Below, in pieces: positions 7,762 to 52,000 of a stretch of 64,000 bases of DNA. The notes beneath the pieces are model-generated. The model ran no database searches and had not been told where the DNA came from. It was given only the letters and a program-made list of their open reading frames with translations. Every line of letters starts with the position of its first letter. The first letter of the stretch is position 1. Origin of the DNA: Reclinomonas americana ATCC 50394 (lineage: Eukaryota); contig PS015054.1 of NCBI GenBank assembly GCA_048213135.1, positions 381,812-445,811 on the forward strand. Direction: 5' to 3'. The position numbers and the translations under genes were made by a program.

Positions 7762-7953
7762 GATGACGTGCGCGTGTGTCAATCACAGTCTGCACACGCA
7801 CAGAGTGAGAGAGAGCGTGTCATCAAAGGCAACGCCACGAATCCGTACACACGCACACATGCACGCATGCAAGAAAAGACACGCATGCGACACACACACA
7901 CACACACGTTTGAAGTGACACTCGTGCAGTTTGCACGCACAGAGAGAGGAAGA

Positions 7954-19947: not shown

Positions 19948-20128
19948 GACGTACGTACGTCGTTCGTCGTACGTAGTAGTCGTACGTTACGGTTACGGTA
20001 CGGTACGGTACGGTACGGGTACGGACGACCGACCGGACCGGCCGTACCGCGNNNNNNNNNNNNNNNNNNNNNNNNNNNNNNNNNNNNNNNNNNNNNNNNN
20101 NNNNNNNNNNNNNNNNNNNNNNNNNNNN

Positions 20129-20481: not shown

Positions 20482-23218
20482 TCAAATATTGGGGATCTCT
20501 TGCCTGCCCGCGATAGAGCATGCCTGATTGAAGGAGCCACATCTGTGCAAGCGAGGGTCGGTAAGCAAAGAGGACGACTAAAGAAGAGCTTGAGAGGCTC
20601 GACGCAACGGCCATACACCGCCGACAGGTTTGACCTTGAGACACCTGAAACAATACTCAGTCTGACACTGCAGGAGGCGATGGTTGGTTAGTAGCATGCG
20701 CAGCGACGATGCTTTGTCTCTCGAGACGCAACATTGATGCATTTGACATGTTTACAGGCCTCGGCATGTTCTACGAGGTGAGCAGTAGTGAGCACGTCGA
20801 TGGACAACAACGAGACATGGCGGAGTGCAGGCACCCACCCAGAATGGTGAAGCAGCGTGGACAAGCGCGCACACATGGTACGTTGCCGGAGAGGCCACCG
20901 ATTTGCTTGGTGCTGCACGTCTTCAGCAGGTGGTTGATGTGCGAATTGCCCGACATGCAGTCCTTGTTGCCGCACGCCATTGCATTCGCCTTTCCACGCC
21001 ACGGCCGACCGCACTGGGCGCAGAAACTGTGCGACCGCAAGTGAGGAAGGAGCACATATTGTGGCGGCTCAGCAGGAGGAGCAGTACGCAACTGGGTGTT
21101 GCAGAGGGCGCATGTGACGCGTCGCATGTTGGGATCCTCTGGCAAAATGTGAGCTTGGCACTGTGAATGTGACGTGCGAGATGAGTGCGGTGAGCATCGA
21201 CGACGTGGACTGTGGCATGGATGCAACGCACTCTTGAGTTGGGGCACACCAGTGCGCGCAGCTCCGACGCCACGTAGCTGGAGAAAGAGAGAGAATTGTG
21301 AATCAAACTGCTGCGCCGCCGATGTTGTTTGATGACACGTACCCTCGGCTGAGCAGCTCAAAGTACTGCGACGCCACCTGTTGCGCTGCCGCACCGCGCT
21401 CCCGAGCCGACGCCTCGACGACTTCTTGTGGAATGGCTGCAGCGAGACGCGTAAGGCAGTGAAGGGCCAGCAGCACGTGACAGGCATTCATACCAGTGCG
21501 ACAGCCGGTGTGGAAGCACGCAATTGGCGTCGTGGACGCTTGTTGCACCTATGCAGTTGGCGCCGTGAGTGGGGCGCGAGAGGCAACAAGGGAAGAAGGA
21601 GGAGCAACGCACATGCGAGCCGAGCGAGTCGACCAGACACTCGGCGTGGACACCGTGCGAGCACGGCAACACATACACCGTGTCCTCGCTGCTCATGCAC
21701 AAGCTGCAGAGGCAGGTGCGGTTGTTGACGGTGCGCACTTCGTAGCGCGGCGCTGGCGGGGCCACTGTCCGCGCCACCGGAGCGACGGGTGGAGGTGGTG
21801 GAGTAGGGCCAGAGAACAATGACGGCACGGCGGTTGTGTTGACAGCGCCGTAGTGTGCCACCGGAGTGTTCACCACGGGCAAGAATCCGTCGTAATCGTA
21901 GCGAATCGGTCGCCAACAGCCACGCGGGATGACCATCCAGAGGAGCACCACAATGGCCGTCAGCGGGCCGAGACCGAATATCTATGTCGCGATGAACGTA
22001 AGCGGCGCTGCGATGGACATGTCGACAGACGTGGCACTCACCATCGTGTATTTGACGTAGAGGTTCCACGTGATGCCGTTGGTCACCAAAAAGTAGTTGG
22101 AATAACAGTTGGCCAGGGCTAACGCCACAAAGGCGAGTGCTGTGCATAAGCGGTGAGCCACACACGCACACTCAACAAGTGAATCGAGTGTGCATTTTTC
22201 TCACCAAAGAGGCGCACCAAGGCTGGCGTCTCGTCAAAGTCAGCACGCCGACCGCGGTGTGAGTGCCTTCCGTACAGCAAGAAACTCCTGGAACGGATGC
22301 ATGAGCTTGCAAGACCACTTTCCGACTGAAGGAGGAGGATCGCGACGCAACATCGCCACCATGCCAATGACCCAGCCACCGGCAAACACCGAGAACGCCA
22401 TCCTGCACGCACAGAATGCAGTGAGGCTACACGTGCACGGACGTGTGGACGCAGTGAGGCTGGACTCACCACGACACCCAGTCGCACGCGACTGCAGAAA
22501 GGCACATGCATTAAAGTATGAGCGACATGTGTTGTGCGCGAGACTGACAATGACGATGCAAACCAGCAGTCTTCTTGTACGTGTAAATGTTGACGTCGAT
22601 TCCGTAGCAGTAGTTGAAGGAGTACCAGTAACAATTGTCGGCAGCGGTACACTATACGTAGACGAGGGGCAGGGGGTCAGCTTGCAATACAAAGACCCGG
22701 CACTACAAGACACGCAGCGCAACAGTGGTCGTGTTGTACATGTTGGTGTAGTACTGATTCGTGGTCAACAGGTAGCACCTGCTAGACGACAGATCGCAGT
22801 CCGCATAACACGTTGTGTTGGTGGCCACCTGCACCCACGTGCACGACGATTGATTAATGAACACACAACGAGAAATGCGAACACACACGACAAAACCCAC
22901 CATTGACCCGCACAGAGGATACGCCGGTGGTGCACCGCTATAGTCTGCACAGGAGTATGTGAGAGGCAAGATGCACGAGAAGTGTCTCTCTCTTCTTCAC
23001 CACTCACTCACCTGTGCACGATGTGCACATGTACGTTCCCGGCAACGCGGTGATGAACACCAGCACTGCACACATTGCCGCAATGGCACACCACAACAGG
23101 AACGTGGCTGCGCGAGTGCGAGAAGATCATTGAGTCGAAGAGAGACATGCGTGTGTTCGGAGTGACACAGACACAGACACAGACCAACAAGCGGATAGCA
23201 TCGGAACATGTGCGCCAT
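20482..23218 (-). CDS. Membrane protein with a Cys-rich loop, several TM segments and a C-terminal RING-IBR-RING (RBR) E3 ligase
   Basis: RING1 CSLC...LPCSHGVHAECL...CFHTGC; IBR CALC...FCAQCGRPW; RING2 RACPRCFTILEHAEACKHVKCINCQTEYCFRCL. N-terminus MAHMFRCYPLVATFLLWCAIAAMCAVLVFITALPG. Confidence 0.7.
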
Positions 23219-27929: not shown

Positions 27930-34231
<6,302 letters not shown>

Positions 34232-36467: not shown

Positions 36468-39400
36468 TTAGAGTGGAATGTTGCCGTGTTTCTGCATGAG
36501 GGCACACCGAGTCAGCACGCACACCCACACATGCACAACAAGAGACAAGAGGTCACACCTTGGACGGGTTTGACTGCGCACGCGGGAGGATCGGGTGAGA
36601 AACCATCCTGACACGCACAGTGTGGCGACACAAATGAACCATCACTCACCAACTCCTTGTCCTTGAGCATGGCCAGGCTCTCGATGATCAGCTGGCGAGA
36701 AGACGACGGCTTGATCACGTCCTGAATGAATCCTGCGCGCACACATACAAGCGTCAGACACAACACATTTGGCGAGTGACTCGTGACAGTCCACTCACCT
36801 CGGCGGGCGGCCTGCATCGGGTTCGCAAACGTGCGAGTGTACGTCTCAGCCTCCTTGTCTTGCTTGTCGGCGTCCTTGCCGCGGAAGATGATTTCGACAG
36901 CACCCTACAACACACAGACAGTGAGCGATCTGATGCGCAAATGCTGCAACAGCAACAAGTATATCGGCGGCACCTTGGCACCCATGACGGCAATCTCAGC
37001 TTGCGGCCACGCCACATTCACGTCACCACGCAGGTGAATGGAGGACATCACATCGTAGGCACCACCGTACGCCTGACAACTTGTCAGTGATTTCGCTTCC
37101 ACACACATAATCGATGAGCAAATAATATCGTACCTTGCGCGTAATGACAGTGACCTTGGGCACAGTGGCCTCAGCGTACGCGTAGAGCAGCTTGGCGCCG
37201 TGGCGAATGATACCACCGTGCTCCTGCTGCACACCGGGCAGGAAGCCTGCGTGCGATCATTTTTTGAGCAAAGCGTCTCCAGCCTCACATGCATGACAAA
37301 CGGAGTGACGCACCGGGCACATCGACAAAGGTCAGAATCGGAATGTTGAAGGCATCAGCAAAGCGGACAACACGAGCCGCCTTGATGCTGGAGTTGATGT
37401 CGAGGCAGCCAGCATTCTCCGACGGCTGTTCTCCCCGACAATGGTGAGCAAACAGAGCGGGAGAGGCGACGACGACAAACACAACAACAGTGACGTGCCT
37501 GGTTGGCGATAATGGCCACAGTGCGTCCGTCCATGCGCGCGAAACCGCACACAATGTTCTTCGCCCAGTCCTTCATGATCTCGAAAAAGTCGCCATTGTC
37601 GACAATCTTCAGAATCACATTGTGCATGTCGTACGGCGACTGCGCGTGCAAAGCAAAAGACACGGAATGAGTGACCACGCATGGGGTGATGCGCACGTCA
37701 CTTATCGACACGCACATTGGGGTCGTTCGGCACCACAGTGTCCAGCGACGACTCGGCACGGTCACTGGTGTGGCACTCGGGCGTGAGTAGCAGACAATGC
37801 ACGCAAAACACACGTCTCTCCCCACTTGCTGTCGCATTCAGCAGAAAGATCACACACACACACCCACACGCACACACACCCACACACGCACACGTACACA
37901 CACACACACACTCTCTCACACCCACCAAACCCACACCAAGCACACACCCACACACTCTCTCTTACACACACAAGAGGAGTCGCTTCTGTTCTTGATGCCA
38001 CATGATCTCATCCCACTCCCTTTCCCTCTTCCTTTCCCCTTCCTCTGCCCCACCACTCACATGGGGTCATAGTTCACTCGCTGCGGCGGCTCCTCGCGGT
38101 TCGACAGCGGCAAGAAGTCGAAGAACTCGCGAGTCTTGCGCAGCGCGTCAATGTCATCGTCGAATGCAGCATGAGCGACACCACCTGCACCAAAAAAAAT
38201 CACAGTCAGCGGGGCAATCATTATTCCTCCCCATTTCTGCACACTGCCGCAACTCTTCTTCGTGTGGGTCGCGGCACCACCAAGATCCTCCTGGGAAATG
38301 TCCTCCCGAGTCACAGCCTTGACGACATCGGGGCCCGTAATGAACATGTTGGAGGTGCCCTTGACCATGAAGATGAAATCGGTGAGTGCCGGCGAGTACA
38401 CCGCACCGCCTGCGTCCACTCAAGCGGTGAGGAAAACACTGTCGGAGAACACCCTCCCGACACTCACAACCGCGCCGCACCAGCACACGGTCCCATGATG
38501 AGCGAGAGTTGAGGAATCACACCAGAAGCCATGACGTTGCGTTGGAACACCTGCACACACACGCAAGATTTTCGACGTGCGTCAGACGCTGCAACACTGT
38601 GCGTACTGCACAGCCGAGATCCACTGCACCTCAGCGTATCCAGCCAGACTGTCGACTCCCTCCTGAATGCGTGCACCACCCGAATCATTCAGACCAATGA
38701 CGGGCGCTCCCACCAGCATGGCTTTGTCCTGACACAAGTCGCACAAGACGCACGTGAGTACAGATGACCCACTATACTGTAGATCCTCCCTTCTTCCCCG
38801 CCACCCACCATAATCTGCGCAGAAACAATGGTGTTTAAGTACGTGGATTCCACCACACAGCATCGCTGCAGAAACCAAGCAAAAACCTTGCAGATCTTGG
38901 AGGCATTGGTCTCCGAGAGAGAGCCACCAAACACCGTAAAGTCCTGGCTGAACACAAACACCAGACGGCCATTGATCATGCCGTGACCAGTGACCACACC
39001 ATCGCCCTTGTACTGCACACGCAATCACCAATCAGCTCCTCCTCCTCCTCCTCCTCCTTCATTCCTTGCCACACGCGTACCGTTTGGTCGGCCATGCCAA
39101 AGTCAGTGCAGCGGTGCTCCACAAACACATCGTACTCGCGGAACGAGCCCTTGTCCAGCAGCAACAGCACACGCTCACGCGCCGTCAGCTTGCCACGCGC
39201 ATGCTGCGAGTCAATGCGCTTCTGTCCACCACCGAGCATCGCCTGCTCTCGGATATCCACCAACTCCTCTTGGAAATCCTGTGACGATAGAAATTGATGC
39301 ATCACTTGGTGTGACAACCACAGAGTGACGGAGGAAAAAAAGATGCGAAAGTGTGATGCATCAGCCCCACCTTCTTGATTTGCTTGGCGGACCACGACGA

Positions 39401-46077: not shown

Positions 46078-49000
46078 ATGGGCGTCCCCGCGTTCTTCCG
46101 GTTGCGTGCCACTGCCCCTCGCGCGCTCTCTCTCTCACACACACACGTGCTCTCTCTCTTTTTGGTGCTCACGTGCATTGCGCGCGCAGATGGTTGAGCA
46201 CCAAGTACCCACTGGTGATGCGCAACGCGGTGGAGGTGCGTCCAGAGGATCAGGCGGGTGTGCCGGTGGATATCACCGAGGCGAACCCGAATGGCGAGGA
46301 GTTTGACAACTTGTACCTCGATATGAATGGTGTGTGTGTGTGTATAAAGGAGAGTGCATGCATGCATGAAAGTGTGCTGACTTTTTTTGCGTTGTGAAGG
46401 CATCATTCACCCGTGCACGCATCCGCCTGATGGGGTGAGTGTGTGTGTGTGTGCGTGCTCTCTCGTTCTCTCTTTGTGTGTGTGAGGGGGAGAAGAAAGG
46501 GTCTTGTTTGAGTTGGTCATGACTTTGCGTGGGGGGACATGTGCAGGCGCCGCCTCCAACGGAGGAGCACATGATGGTGGCCATCATGGAGTACATTGAC
46601 CGCATCTTTGCGATTGTGCGCCCGCGCAAGTTGCTCTTCATGGCGATTGGTAAGAGAGAGAGAGAGAGATGAAGGCAATGCAGCATTTTGACACTTTGTC
46701 TGTGCAGATGGAGTGGCTCCGCGTGCCAAGATGAACCAGCAGCGGTCGCGTCGTTTTCGTGCGGTGAAGGAGGCCGATGAGCGTGCAGCAGCGCGTGAGG
46801 AGCTGGCCAAGGAGCTCCGTGCGCAGGGCCACAAGATCCCGCCACTGGAGCACGGATCGGTGTGTCACTGCTGCTTGCTGCTTGCTGTTACGTTGCATGC
46901 TGACTGGTCTCGGCAGCACTTTGATCGCAATGTCATCACACCCGGCACTCCGTTCATGGCCAAGGTGGCCGAGTGTGTGCGCTACTATGCGCTGAGTCGC
47001 ATGAACACGGAGCCGGCGTGGAAGAACGTTGAGCTCTCTCTCTCTCTCCTTGCCTCCTGTGCGCGTGTCTCTCACACGGTCTGTGTGTGCTGGTGTGCTG
47101 CAGATCAAGGTGATCTTCTCCGACGCCAATGCTCCCGGTGAAGGCGAGCACAAGATTGTCGAGTTCATTCGTGAGACGCGTGTCCGCGAGGGCTACGATC
47201 CCGACACCAAGCACGTGTTGTACGGCTTGGTACGTTTGCCGTAGTTTCCAATCCCCCCGGCGCGCTGGCTCACACTTGTCGTTGTGCTCGTGCAGGATGC
47301 CGATCTCATCATGTTGGCTCTGGCTACACATGAGGCGCACTTCACCATTCTGCGTGAGCAGGTGTTTGTGCCGCGCGATGAAATGATGCAAGATCGTGAA
47401 CGAAAGCAGCTGCTGGAGCGCATTGAAGAACTGCGTGGTACGCTTGACGCTCGCGCGCGTGGTGGCGAGAGCCCTCGTGCTCTTGCTGCTGCTCTTTTCC
47501 CCCCGCCTTTGCAGCCTGTGGACCAAAGCTCTGTTTCCCTGTTTGTGTGTGCGTGCGTGTGTGTGTGTGTGTCTGTGTATTGCGTGTAGCGTACGGCAAG
47601 CCGGTTGAGACAGAGGAGGAAGCGCGCTTGAACGAACTCGAGGCGGCGCGCGCAAAGGGACCAAAACCATTCCAGCTGCTCAGCATTCCAGTCTTGCGAG
47701 AGTATCTAGAGGCCGAGGTCTTTTTTTCGAGAGTGTGTGCAAACTTGCAGCTCCACGCCCAGTGTTGCTCATGCGCAAATGTGTCCCCTCCTCCTTCCCT
47801 CCCCCGCCCTTTCAGTTCCAAGTTCCGCAAGGCACACTGCCGTTCCCGTACGATTTTGAGCGCATCATCGACGACATTATCTTTATTCTGTTCTTCTGCG
47901 GCAATGATTTCCTGCCGCACTTGCCGGCGCTCGACATTCGCGAGGGAGCCGTCGACACCCTGTTCAACATCTACCGACGCATGCTGCCGCAGCTGGGCGG
48001 GTACGTCACCGATCGAGGCAGGATCAGTGTTCCCCGAGTAGAGCGTCTGCTGGCCGAAGTTGGTCAGTGCTCCCTCTCTTTGCACCGTAGTCGTGCAATC
48101 TACGCGGCCAACAATTATTTCTCCACTCGATGCAGGCACGTTGGAGGAGAAGTTTTTCATTCAGCGCACTCAACGCGAGGCACAGCGTGCTCGCCAGATG
48201 GCCAACCGCCGGTCAGTGCCCCTCTCCGCTTCGGCGGTCATGTTGTCTCGATTCTCACTCTCGTGGTCAGTGATGGCCATGGCCACGGCCACGGTCACGG
48301 TCACGGTGGATCGCGGGGCGGCGGGACTCCACAGACGCCCATGACGCCTCTGTCACCGTCGACACCGTTTTCGACCGTTCCCGGGTTTGCGGTGCCGTAT
48401 CAGGTTGTGGGCACAGCGGCCGAGATGCCCAAAATCGACGTGGTTCGCCGTGGTGTCTCCTGTCGGTGTGACATTAACATTGTGCCTGACACGCTTGTTT
48501 TTTATGTCTTGCACAGGCGGCCCTGGCGGAGGCAACTCGCCAGAATCAGTCGGTCAGTGCCGAGCTGCGCACTCGCGACAGCGGTGCTGCCAACAAACAG
48601 GCAGCGCGCGAGCTGAAGAACCAGCTCCTTGGCAAGCGCAAGCGGCCAAAGGATGAAACCGCGGCCGCTGGAGACGACACGGCTGCCACAGAGGCCAGCG
48701 CTGCCGCAGATGCTGCTGGCGAGGCTGTGGCAGAGGAGAGCATGGAACCGGTGACGGTGCTGCCGGCGGACGCACCTGATGCGGAGCTCGATGCGGCCAT
48801 GGCGGAAATGGCGGATGACATCCCCGCGCCAGAGTCTGACACTCCGGCAGGGGATGTGGAGGAACCACCCGTCAAGGCACGCAAGCTCGACGATGGCAGT
48901 TTCGTACCTCCTCCTGTGCCCCCCCCCCTCTCTGCCATATGGAGCACGAGCATAATCAATGTTGCTGCAGCTCCCATGGCCACGGCTGCCGCGCCAGAGG

Positions 49001-52000
49001 CAGAGGGACTGACTGCAGCACCTTCACTCGGGCCGCTGGAGATGGCCGCCGACGACGAAGAGGACGAGGCAACTGCGGCAGTGGTGGAGGAGCTGGAGGC
49101 AGTGAAGGCGGCTGCGGATAAGGATGCCGAGCAATCGCTTCACTTGTTCACCTACATGTTCAAGAAGAAGACGCAGGAGCTGACCCAGGTCGCTGATGCC
49201 GCCGACAATTTGCGGTGCGTGTGGATGGTGGTGACTCAGTGTTTGACGAATTTTTTCTGATTTCGTTTGCGCAGTCTCGGTGAGGCGGGTTGGCGCGAGC
49301 GGTACTATCAGTCCAAGTTCCATGTCGCGTACGGCACGCCCGAATTCGAACAGTTCAAGCGCGAGATCCAGCGCAGCTACATGGAGGGCCTGCAGTGGGT
49401 GTACTCGTACTATTATGTGCGTCCATAGTTCCTCATCTTGAATTCTTCGTATCCAGAAACTCATTTTCTGCTGTTGGGCACAGGGTTCGTCGCCGCTGTC
49501 GAGCGCCTGCAACTTTACTGCTTCACTGCTTGTATTGCGATGCTGACTTTGTTTCCGCCACTTGTGTGTGTTTCTCAATGCGCGACAGATGGATGCCCGT
49601 CATGTTGCGTCTTTTCGTTGTGGACTATCGAATCCTCTCTCGCTGAACCTTGCAATCTCCTTTTCTCTTTCTCTTGTTCGACCTGCAGGGTCGTGGTATT
49701 TCCCGTACCACTATGCACCCATGTGCTTCGAGCTGGTCGGCCTGGCTGAGTTGTACCCGGAGCAGGGTCCGACATTTGAGCTCGGCAAGCCGTTTGCTCC
49801 GTTCGAGCAGCTCATGGCGGTGCGTTCCCTCCTCGTGTCGCTGACTCTACACGACAAGGCTCGTGACTCATTGCGTTCACGTGCAGGTGCTGCCGGCGGG
49901 TTCATGCGCGGCTCTGCCCAGTGGCTACCACTGGTTGATGAAGGAGCCGTCGTCACCGATTATTGACTTTTATCCGGAGGATTTCGTCATTGATCTGGAG
50001 GGCTGCAAGGCGACATGGATGGGCGTCGCGCTGCTGCCATTCATCGACGAGCAGCGCTTGCTGACGGCGCTGGAACCAGTCAAGACGACGCTGACTCGGG
50101 ACGAGATTGCTCGCAACTCGCTTGGGTGCGTGCAATACGCAAGTGGTGCTTTTGTTGAAAACACCATTCACTCACAATGTTCGCCGCAGTGAGACGCTCT
50201 TGTTCCTCCACCGAGAGCATCCCTTTGGCGGTGCTGTTCTGCCTCTTGGTATGTCAGCGTAACGTACATGTGCGCTCACGAGGTTGGGAATCTCATCGTT
50301 GCCTGCGTGTCTCAGTGGCCGGCGACGAAGCAGAGGAGGTGGAAATGGATCCGTTGCTCACTCCCAGCATCACCGGTCGCTGCAAGCGCACCGACAAGGC
50401 GGTGAAGGTCGACGGCGTTGTGCGTTCACCGCTCCCCAAGTGAGTGCGCTTCCCGGACCTGTTGTCGTCGTCGTGGGAGAAAATGGTGTTGACAAGGTCT
50501 CGCAGGTCAATGGGAACCGATGTGCCGCACAATCAAGCTCTGGTGTGCGTGTACAAGCTGCCCGAGCACCTTCCGCACATTACGCACTTGCTGCCGAACG
50601 TCAAGTTGCCTCCGCGCTGTTGCGTTGACACTGCCTTGTGTGTGTGTGTGTGTACCGCACACTGTGCTCATCACGCAAGCCCTCCCCTTCATGCAGTGAT
50701 TCCAACGGACTGGGCGCCGCGCCGTCAGAGCTTCGGCGGCGGCGGTGGTGGTGGTGATCGCGGCAATGGTGGTGGTTACCGTGGCGAAGGCGGCTACGGT
50801 GGCGGCCGTGGTGGCGGTGGCGGTGGCGGTGGCGGCCGTGGTGGTTATCAAGGCAATCGCTTCAGCCACTCGCAGCAGGTGTGTACGCACTCGCATGCGT
50901 CTGTGTGCGTGTTTGTGAGCAAGTGATCTGATAAGCGCGCGCGTGTCATCAGATGATGATGGACGCAGAGGCTGCCAAGCGCATCATTGAGGCGCACCAG
51001 GGTCGCGGTGGTGGTGGTGGTGGTGGTGGTGGTGGTGGTGGTGGCCGTGATCAGTCGTACTCGTCGCAATCGTCGCAGCACGGGTATCACCAGCATCAGC
51101 AGCAGCAGCACGGACATCATCGCCAGCACGACTCATATGGTGGCGGTGGTGATCGTGGAGGCGGTCGTGGAGGCGATCGAGGCGGTGACCGAGGTGGTGA
51201 CCGAGGTGGAGACCGCGGTGGTGGCCGTGGTGGTGGTGGTGGTGGTGGCGGCCGTGGTGGTGGTGGCTATCCTGACCGACGGTTCGTGGACCCCTCGTCA
51301 CCATTCATTGTCACTGTGTTCTCATTTTATCTGTCTTGTGATGATGGTACAGGGATTCGGGATACAACCGCAGTGGCAGTGGTGGACGACAGCGCAGTCC
51401 GCCTCGTTCACACGGTGGCGGCGGTGGCGGCGGAGACCGGTGAGTGTGCCTGCCTGCGAGTCCATTGGTGTGTTTCTGCGCTGGTTCGCTTACAATTAGC
51501 CTCGTCTGTCAGGTACTCTGGTGGCCGCCGTTCGCCTCCTCGTCACGGTACGTGTGTTTGCTCATTCCGTGCCATTGTCGCACCTGTCTCATTGTGTTCA
51601 CGCGTGCGTGCGATGCAGAGCGTGAATCGTATTCTGGTCGACACGGCAGTGAGCGTGACCGCGTGGTGCAGCACTACGGTGGCCCGTACATTCCCAAGCT
51701 GCCCGATCGGCAGTACCAGTCCAACTCTCCCGAGCGGCACTACGGTCGCGACGACGACAGGAGGTGAGTGTGTGCCCCTGTGCATGAGTGCCATGCGCTG
51801 TTATCGGCTAAGCTGTTGTGCATGCAGGCCGCGATCTGGATACCCGTACGAGCCTGCTCCCGAATATGGTGCTCCCCGGCATCACGGTGGGGCGGCCGCT
51901 GCTGCTGCAGCTGCTGCCGCCGCTGCCGCGCCGATGATGCACCCCGGCTATGCTCGTTGCGTATTCTGTGTCTGAGTTTCGTCTCCTTTTGCGCAAGCAT

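Follow-up and report, generated by a model that had tools for sequence, protein, structure and literature searches.

How can a gene keep its reading frame when the exons that flank a conserved motif fall one base short of the protein? This question is raised by a locus of Reclinomonas americana ATCC 50394, which lies within an XRN2/Rat1-type 5'-3' exoribonuclease gene on the + strand of a 64,000-nucleotide (nt) stretch of contig PS015054.1 (positions 381,812 to 445,811; assembly GCA_048213135.1). The whole stretch is called the window below, and positions are counted from its first letter. A sequence-only reading of this DNA had proposed that a lone G, at 49484, forms an exon by itself. On the evidence given here, the G is best explained as a constitutive one-nucleotide exon between two ordinary U2-type GT-AG introns, with a probability of about 0.8.

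Both domain content and best similarity point to an XRN2/Rat1 5'-3' exoribonuclease for the gene at 46078..50639. The translations of six exons match the Pfam profiles XRN_N (PF03159) and XRN_M (PF17846) above their curated cut-offs. In a search against solved structures, the top matches of the exon upstream of the G are XRN2 chains ('5'-3' exoribonuclease 2') and the exon downstream fits XRN1 chains slightly better. The spliced model is 50-52% identical to full-length homologues over residues 1-434 and 35-41% identical over residues about 600-969. Among named proteins, the best matches show about 60% identity and belong equally to animals, plants and fungi.

The one-base deficit can be measured on this conserved protein. 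In seven of seven different solved XRN1/XRN2 chains, the residues aligned with the end of the upstream exon and with the start of the downstream exon are exactly six residues apart (residue pairs 643/650, 632/639, 582/589, 547/554, 529/536, 429/436 and 617/624), and the two exon ends fall on positions 213 and 220 of the Pfam XRN_M profile. The same spacing is found in the homologues. A search of 1.84 billion representatives gave a set of 150, in which the region is present in 95 and absent from 55. With a strict pattern, 80 of 81 homologues have a single residue between the YY[YFM..] block and the following Gly, as do 14/14 of the others listed. The six-residue spacing is thus kept in 94/95 region-containing homologues, the lone exception probably being an artefact of the search pattern. 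Two homologues carry an Asp at the single-residue position. In a metagenome scan, the motif is uninterrupted and has the same spacing in 20 of 22 loci (33-60% identical). Six residues require 18 bases, whereas the 15-nt microexon and the GG that opens the downstream exon provide 17; therefore exactly one is missing. Compared with the conserved protein, the flanking exons are out of phase by exactly one base. The solved chains, the profile and the homologues all back the earlier claim that the 15-nt exon needs one extra base.

A candidate for this base lies in the 172-nt gap between the upstream exon and the microexon (49417-49588). The gap holds the sequence CACAG/G/GTTCGT (slashes mark the putative splice sites), which divides it into two GT-AG introns of 67 and 104 nt, called introns A and B hereafter. 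The spliced product would read ...TAT TAT/G/AT GGA... and, together with the next intron (intron C), three introns would sit within 18 coding bases (1 + 15 + 2). The coordinates and sequences proposed earlier for 49417-49689 all agree with the bases of the window. When the exons are joined by script with the G included, one open frame is obtained that carries the peptide predicted by the sequence-only reading. If the G is left out, no frame stays open across the junction, so that direct joining does cause the frameshift that had been announced. The inner AG/N/GT, with competent signals on both sides, splits the gap into introns of normal size (67 and 104 nt, compared with 57-112 nt for the validated introns of the gene).

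The strength of the inner site was assessed with a gene finder that combines dynamic programming, codon log-odds and self-trained splice matrices and that allows GT..AG introns only. With a stricter intron prior, it predicted 17 genes, which have 258 introns in all (median length 67 nt); an earlier run diverged (548 introns, merged genes) and was discarded. The splice matrices were retrained on 256 predicted introns, the introns of the region itself being excluded. On this scale, the inner acceptor (49483) reaches 8.6 bits and the inner donor (49485) 7.26 bits, which correspond to the 70th and the 57th percentile of the 256 predicted introns; the outer donor (49417) reaches 8.0 bits (65th percentile). 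CACAG is the third commonest acceptor pentamer (35/256), and GTTCGT is the donor of 7/256 introns. Only one of the 434 AGNGT pentamers found on both strands (128 kb) reaches both inner-site scores, and it is the AGGGT at 49484 itself; in four of the 434, acceptor and donor alike exceed the lower quartile for predicted sites. When the gap was shuffled 20,000 times with its dinucleotides preserved, an eligible AGNGT was present in 2,864 shuffles and 34 reached the lower quartile on both sides, but none matched the observed pair. Of the decoy dinucleotides, 0.78% of the AG and 2.8% of the GT reach the inner-site scores, which gives a chance of about 6e-5 for such a pair per gap of this size if the acceptor and donor rates are taken as independent. 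Occurrence of the inner AG/G/GT by chance is excluded. The earlier statement that this site splits the gap into canonical introns with typical signals agrees with these scores, which are ordinary for predicted sites and far above chance.

Intron length and branch motif bear on the same point. The spliced model aligns without gaps with full-length homologues across 12 intron positions. These 12 introns are 57-112 nt long, and a single 172-nt intron would exceed all of them. The 256 predicted introns comprise 228 of at most 100 nt, one of about 110 nt, none of 115-174 nt and 27 of at least 175 nt, none of these 27 being confirmed by homology. The length of intron A, 67 nt, is the median of the predicted introns. 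In this genome, the branch-like motif reads CTSAY and lies about 19 nt upstream of the 3' end, and CTCAC and CTGAC are strongly enriched near 3' ends. In intron A, the motif is CTCAT and its A lies 20 nt upstream of the 3' end, compared with a genome median of 19; the AG of this intron is the first one after the motif.

Ultra-short exons also occur elsewhere in the window. A gene for the beta subunit of propionyl-CoA carboxylase includes a 6-nt microexon, and in solved chains of this protein (PCCB) exactly two residues separate the parts encoded by the flanking exons (143/146, 110/113, 111/114 and 131/134), which confirms the exon. Judged by the spacing of the encoded proteins, the ultra-short exons of this genome, i.e., the 15-nt exon of XRN2 and the 6-nt exon of the carboxylase, are demonstrably real. 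Their use by the genome supports the one-nucleotide exon.

Table. Coordinates of the features of the XRN2 locus and of other features of the window. The one-nucleotide exon and the introns around it are putative.
Feature	Position	Strand	Remarks
XRN2/Rat1-type 5'-3' exoribonuclease gene	46078..50639	+	part backed by homology
Upstream exon	49275..49416	+	ends in phase 0, ...TAC TAT TAT (YYY codons); XRN2 chains align up to exactly YYY; XRN_M profile positions 169-213
Intron A, 67 nt	49417..49483	+	donor GTGCGT; branch-like CTCAT at 49460-49464; acceptor CACAG
Proposed single-nucleotide exon, G	49484..49484	+	would be the first base of a GAT (Asp) codon, restoring the frame and the six-residue spacing
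Intron B, 104 nt	49485..49588	+	donor GTTCGT; branch-like CTGAC at 49543-49547; weak acceptor GACAG
15-nt microexon	49589..49603	+	last two bases of the Asp codon, Gly-Cys-Pro-Ser, first base of Trp; fits the spacing of the conserved G-C-x-S-W block
Intron C, 85 nt	49604..49688	+	donor of the GTTGCGT class (GTTGCG at 49604); acceptor CTGCAG
Downstream exon	49689..49819	+	initial GG finishes the Trp codon, then S-W-Y-F-P...; XRN_M profile positions 220/221-258
6-nt microexon ATTATG (Ile-Met), propionyl-CoA carboxylase beta gene	38809-38814	-	lies between introns of 72 and 80 nt, with exons 38887-39012 and 38612-38728 on either side
5S rRNA gene	28935-29054	-	Rfam RF00001, 103 bits; among protein-coding genes
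Other proposed 2-3 nt exons	47515-47517, 1974-1975, 7787-7789, 20541-20542		in unconserved regions or beside long, weakly scored introns

Combined with what is known of the splicing machinery, the following model can be drawn. The very short and tightly sized introns suggest intron definition, in which each intron would be recognised as its own unit and the size of the exon would be irrelevant. The span of the intron B donor (-3 to +6, AGG/GTTCGT) overlaps the acceptor of intron A (AG/G). From general knowledge of the spliceosome, simultaneous engagement of the two would be impossible, leading to sequential removal. Such a sequential removal of introns A and B is what the geometry of the sites implies. 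Intron A is predicted to leave first, because it is transcribed first, both of its sites are strong and its removal improves the donor of intron B, which would rise from 7.26 to 8.77 bits in the context left behind. If intron B were to leave first, the acceptor of intron A would be unchanged, so that either order would leave a canonical partner. That the inner sites are actually used, and in this order, is what we infer from the sequence. The product would supply the Asp codon of the conserved motif.

Other explanations of the deficit have to be weighed against the one-nucleotide exon. In the case of an assembly or sequencing error, the true genome would have one more base at an exon edge and the 172 nt would be one ordinary intron. 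Both edges (49416/49417 and 49588/49589) offer a place for it, as a GG might have been collapsed to a single G, and the assembly is a draft whose scaffold has a 77-N gap at 20052-20128. However, the XRN gene has no further frame break anywhere in the part backed by homology, the intron would be longer than all 12 validated ones, and the inner AG/G/GT would be left as a coincidence, at odds with the shuffles and with its unique rank among the AGNGT pentamers. Such an error is thus unlikely. A single non-canonical intron of 171 nt, with the inner sites never used, is less probable still. It would extend from TG to AG (49418-49588) or from GT to CA (49417-49587) and would yield the same mRNA as the one-nucleotide exon, in a genome that does tolerate an odd donor class (GTTGCGT). 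This intron again turns the inner site into a mere coincidence and, outside the dinucleotide, the donor context shifted to 49418 scores -3.95 bits, compared with +3.95 bits in the canonical register. All 256 predicted introns and all validated ones are GT..AG, which is a weak argument, as the model permitted only this type. In well-annotated genomes, introns of the TG-AG and GT-CA types are generally much less common than one-nucleotide exons, which also counts against this explanation.

The least probable of the alternatives, and a very improbable one, is that the gene is broken or recoded, whether as a pseudogene, by ribosomal frameshifting, through a longer hidden microexon or through an isoform that skips the 15-nt exon. 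The ab initio model did find an in-frame path from the G directly to 49689, and the gap contains other pieces of 13-28 nt bounded by AG and GT (or GC). The skipping path would nevertheless remove the conserved G-C-x-S-W block and leave a 5-residue gap relative to the homologue, whereas the alternative microexons would add 4 to 9 residues where the spacing is invariant. The rest of the gene is intact and aligns with its homologues, and inspection of the junction revealed no slippery heptamer. As for the indel and the non-canonical intron, both need the inner site as a coincidence (of the order of 1e-4 or less) together with an unusually long intron, and the one-nucleotide exon is therefore strongly favoured over them. 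Its own rate, estimated at about 1e-4 per intron from the Coprinopsis count, is similar to or higher than the probability that an indel would fall on the three relevant positions. The sequence-only reading had called such exons very rare; their rarity stands, but their novelty was overstated, since 13 are annotated in one mushroom genome (PMC12230235).

Several observations weigh against the one-nucleotide exon or reduce the weight of the evidence for it. A one-nucleotide exon, a TG..AG intron and a GT..CA intron would all yield one and the same mature mRNA; as 49417 and 49588 are both G, a read of the mRNA junction alone cannot separate these three splice geometries. No close relative was found in the collections searched: the nearest protein is 73% identical, and the 22 metagenome loci are all distant (33-60% identical), 20 of them having no intron at the motif, so that the scan is of no use for judging intron conservation. 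The splice matrices are built on ab initio models, about 13 introns only being checked by homology, and the choice of 49483 and 49485 by the gene finder was dictated by the frame and so carries no independent weight. The gene finder also gave four other exons of 2-3 nt that resemble artefacts, with weak sites and long introns, and that are probably nothing else. Intron B itself has unusual features. Its acceptor, GACAG (49588), reaches only 1.7 bits (4th percentile), its CTGAC motif has the branch A 42 nt upstream of the 3' end, beyond the 95th percentile (39.75), without any AG in between, and its 104 nt place it in a sparse tail of the length distribution (1/256 predicted introns at 100-170 nt). 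These weaknesses would hold equally for one long intron and therefore do not discriminate between the explanations.

Some other ways to read the gap were tried and rejected. Microexons of 13-28 nt, as well as a C at 49504 followed by a GC donor, change the invariant spacing or have poor sites. A recursive splice site, i.e., a zero-length exon, does not fit because one base separates AG from GT and must stay in the mRNA for the frame to be kept. A stwintron was also rejected, introns A and B each having a complete GT...AG in the genomic sequence. Finally, introner-type mobile introns were sought by comparing the three introns with the 256 predicted introns and with the 64-kb window. All matches were of 19 nt at most, many of them lying in a GT microsatellite, and none of the matches to an intron exceeded 14 nt.

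The introns of the window have a second class of donors, to which intron C belongs (its acceptor scores 9.8 bits, 87th percentile). This class, GTTGCG, is found in 17/256 predicted introns, the next base being T in 13 of these 17, and is confirmed by homology at 46101 and by the conserved motif at 49604. It resembles the main GTGCGT consensus with an extra T after the GT, and it may reflect a bulged or shifted pairing with U1. An analysis of hexamer enrichment for donor motifs was uninformative. Rfam and tRNA scans of the window detected only the 5S rRNA gene and no spliceosomal RNA.

The XRN gene is intron-dense from 46078 onward, with about 20 introns in its conserved part, in a window of about 59% G+C. 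The 3' end of the model is uncertain past about 50640, where a neighbour gene may have been fused into it. Downstream of the conserved part, at 50700-51300 on the + strand, the frame enters a long low-complexity sequence rich in Gly and Arg-Gly-Gly. The closest relative found is a 144-residue fragment (protein P0001), which is 73% identical; the window's own protein is not among the matches. As the fragment reads continuously over two intron positions of the XRN gene, it comes from a transcript or from an intron-poor relative. A protein word search with the 47-residue exon gave no scored match. Further along the + strand, from about 53300 onward, an open frame starting with MKYVVVTGG...GKG resembles CTP synthase and may encode one.

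With the one-nucleotide exon proposed for XRN2, a poorly sampled eukaryotic lineage joins the few examples known from plants and fungi; exons of this kind are already documented, and existing knowledge of splicing is left unaltered. A wider interpretation is tentative and rather doubtful. It would make this exon, which lies in an essential housekeeping gene, the first of its kind to be documented beyond plants and fungi, and would see in the exons of 1, 6 and 15 nt a habit of the lineage to cut conserved motifs in this way. It would also involve strictly ordered splicing, in which removal of the upstream 67-nt intron improves the downstream donor, amounting to a short-range recursive splice with a one-base footprint. 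As one-nucleotide exons escape both gene-prediction programs and read aligners, any public XRN2 model for this gene is probably frameshifted or truncated at the conserved motif. The locus would be a compact natural substrate for the study of how a spliceosome deals with physical overlap between an acceptor and a donor. A search of the literature, limited to the library and the terms used, found no report of a one-nucleotide exon in XRN2 or in a protist.

Some known systems can be compared with the XRN2 locus. In the recursive splicing of long animal introns, juxtaposed AG/GT sites (ratchet points) are used sequentially and leave no base in the mRNA. These sites are like the XRN2 locus in that acceptor and donor abut in the sequence and in that the first step leaves a usable donor. 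However, they lie in introns of many kilobases and no base is kept, whereas one base would be kept at the XRN2 locus, where the total is 172 nt.

Exons of one to a few nucleotides are documented in fungi and plants. The long-read annotation of Coprinopsis cinerea lists 13 one-nucleotide, 57 two-nucleotide and 27 three-nucleotide exons (PMC12230235). This fungus shares short introns with the present genome, and its exons of 1-3 nt occur at roughly one per thousand genes. The catalogue is genome-wide and transcript-based and does not deal with XRN2 (PMC12230235). No annotated fungus is closely related to the organism studied here. In plants, one-nucleotide exons are found in APC11 (PMC4674806) and in VPS55, the latter supported by RNA-seq and RT-PCR (PMC8831610). 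As proposed for XRN2, a constitutive single base lies between GT-AG introns, is essential to the frame and was missed by annotation pipelines. The plant cases differ by their longer introns, by their conservation across land plants and by the evidence obtained for them (RT-PCR, reporter constructs and RNA-seq) (PMC4674806, PMC8831610).

The closest parallel in sequence is provided by the CYP621A P450 genes of Fusarium, which also have a one-nucleotide exon (PMC12940212). There, as in XRN2, the pentamer is AGGGT and the G exon falls inside a conserved motif. In both cases, the exons are one base out of phase, the spacing of the motif is fixed and the apparent intron is more than twice the usual length (PMC12940212). 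The Fusarium exon is conserved in 20-24 orthologues and supported by RNA reads (PMC12940212), whereas the XRN2 exon is proposed from the sequence of one locus. The XRN2 locus differs further in that it belongs to another gene family and another lineage and in that a 15-nt microexon comes directly after the putative one-nucleotide exon.

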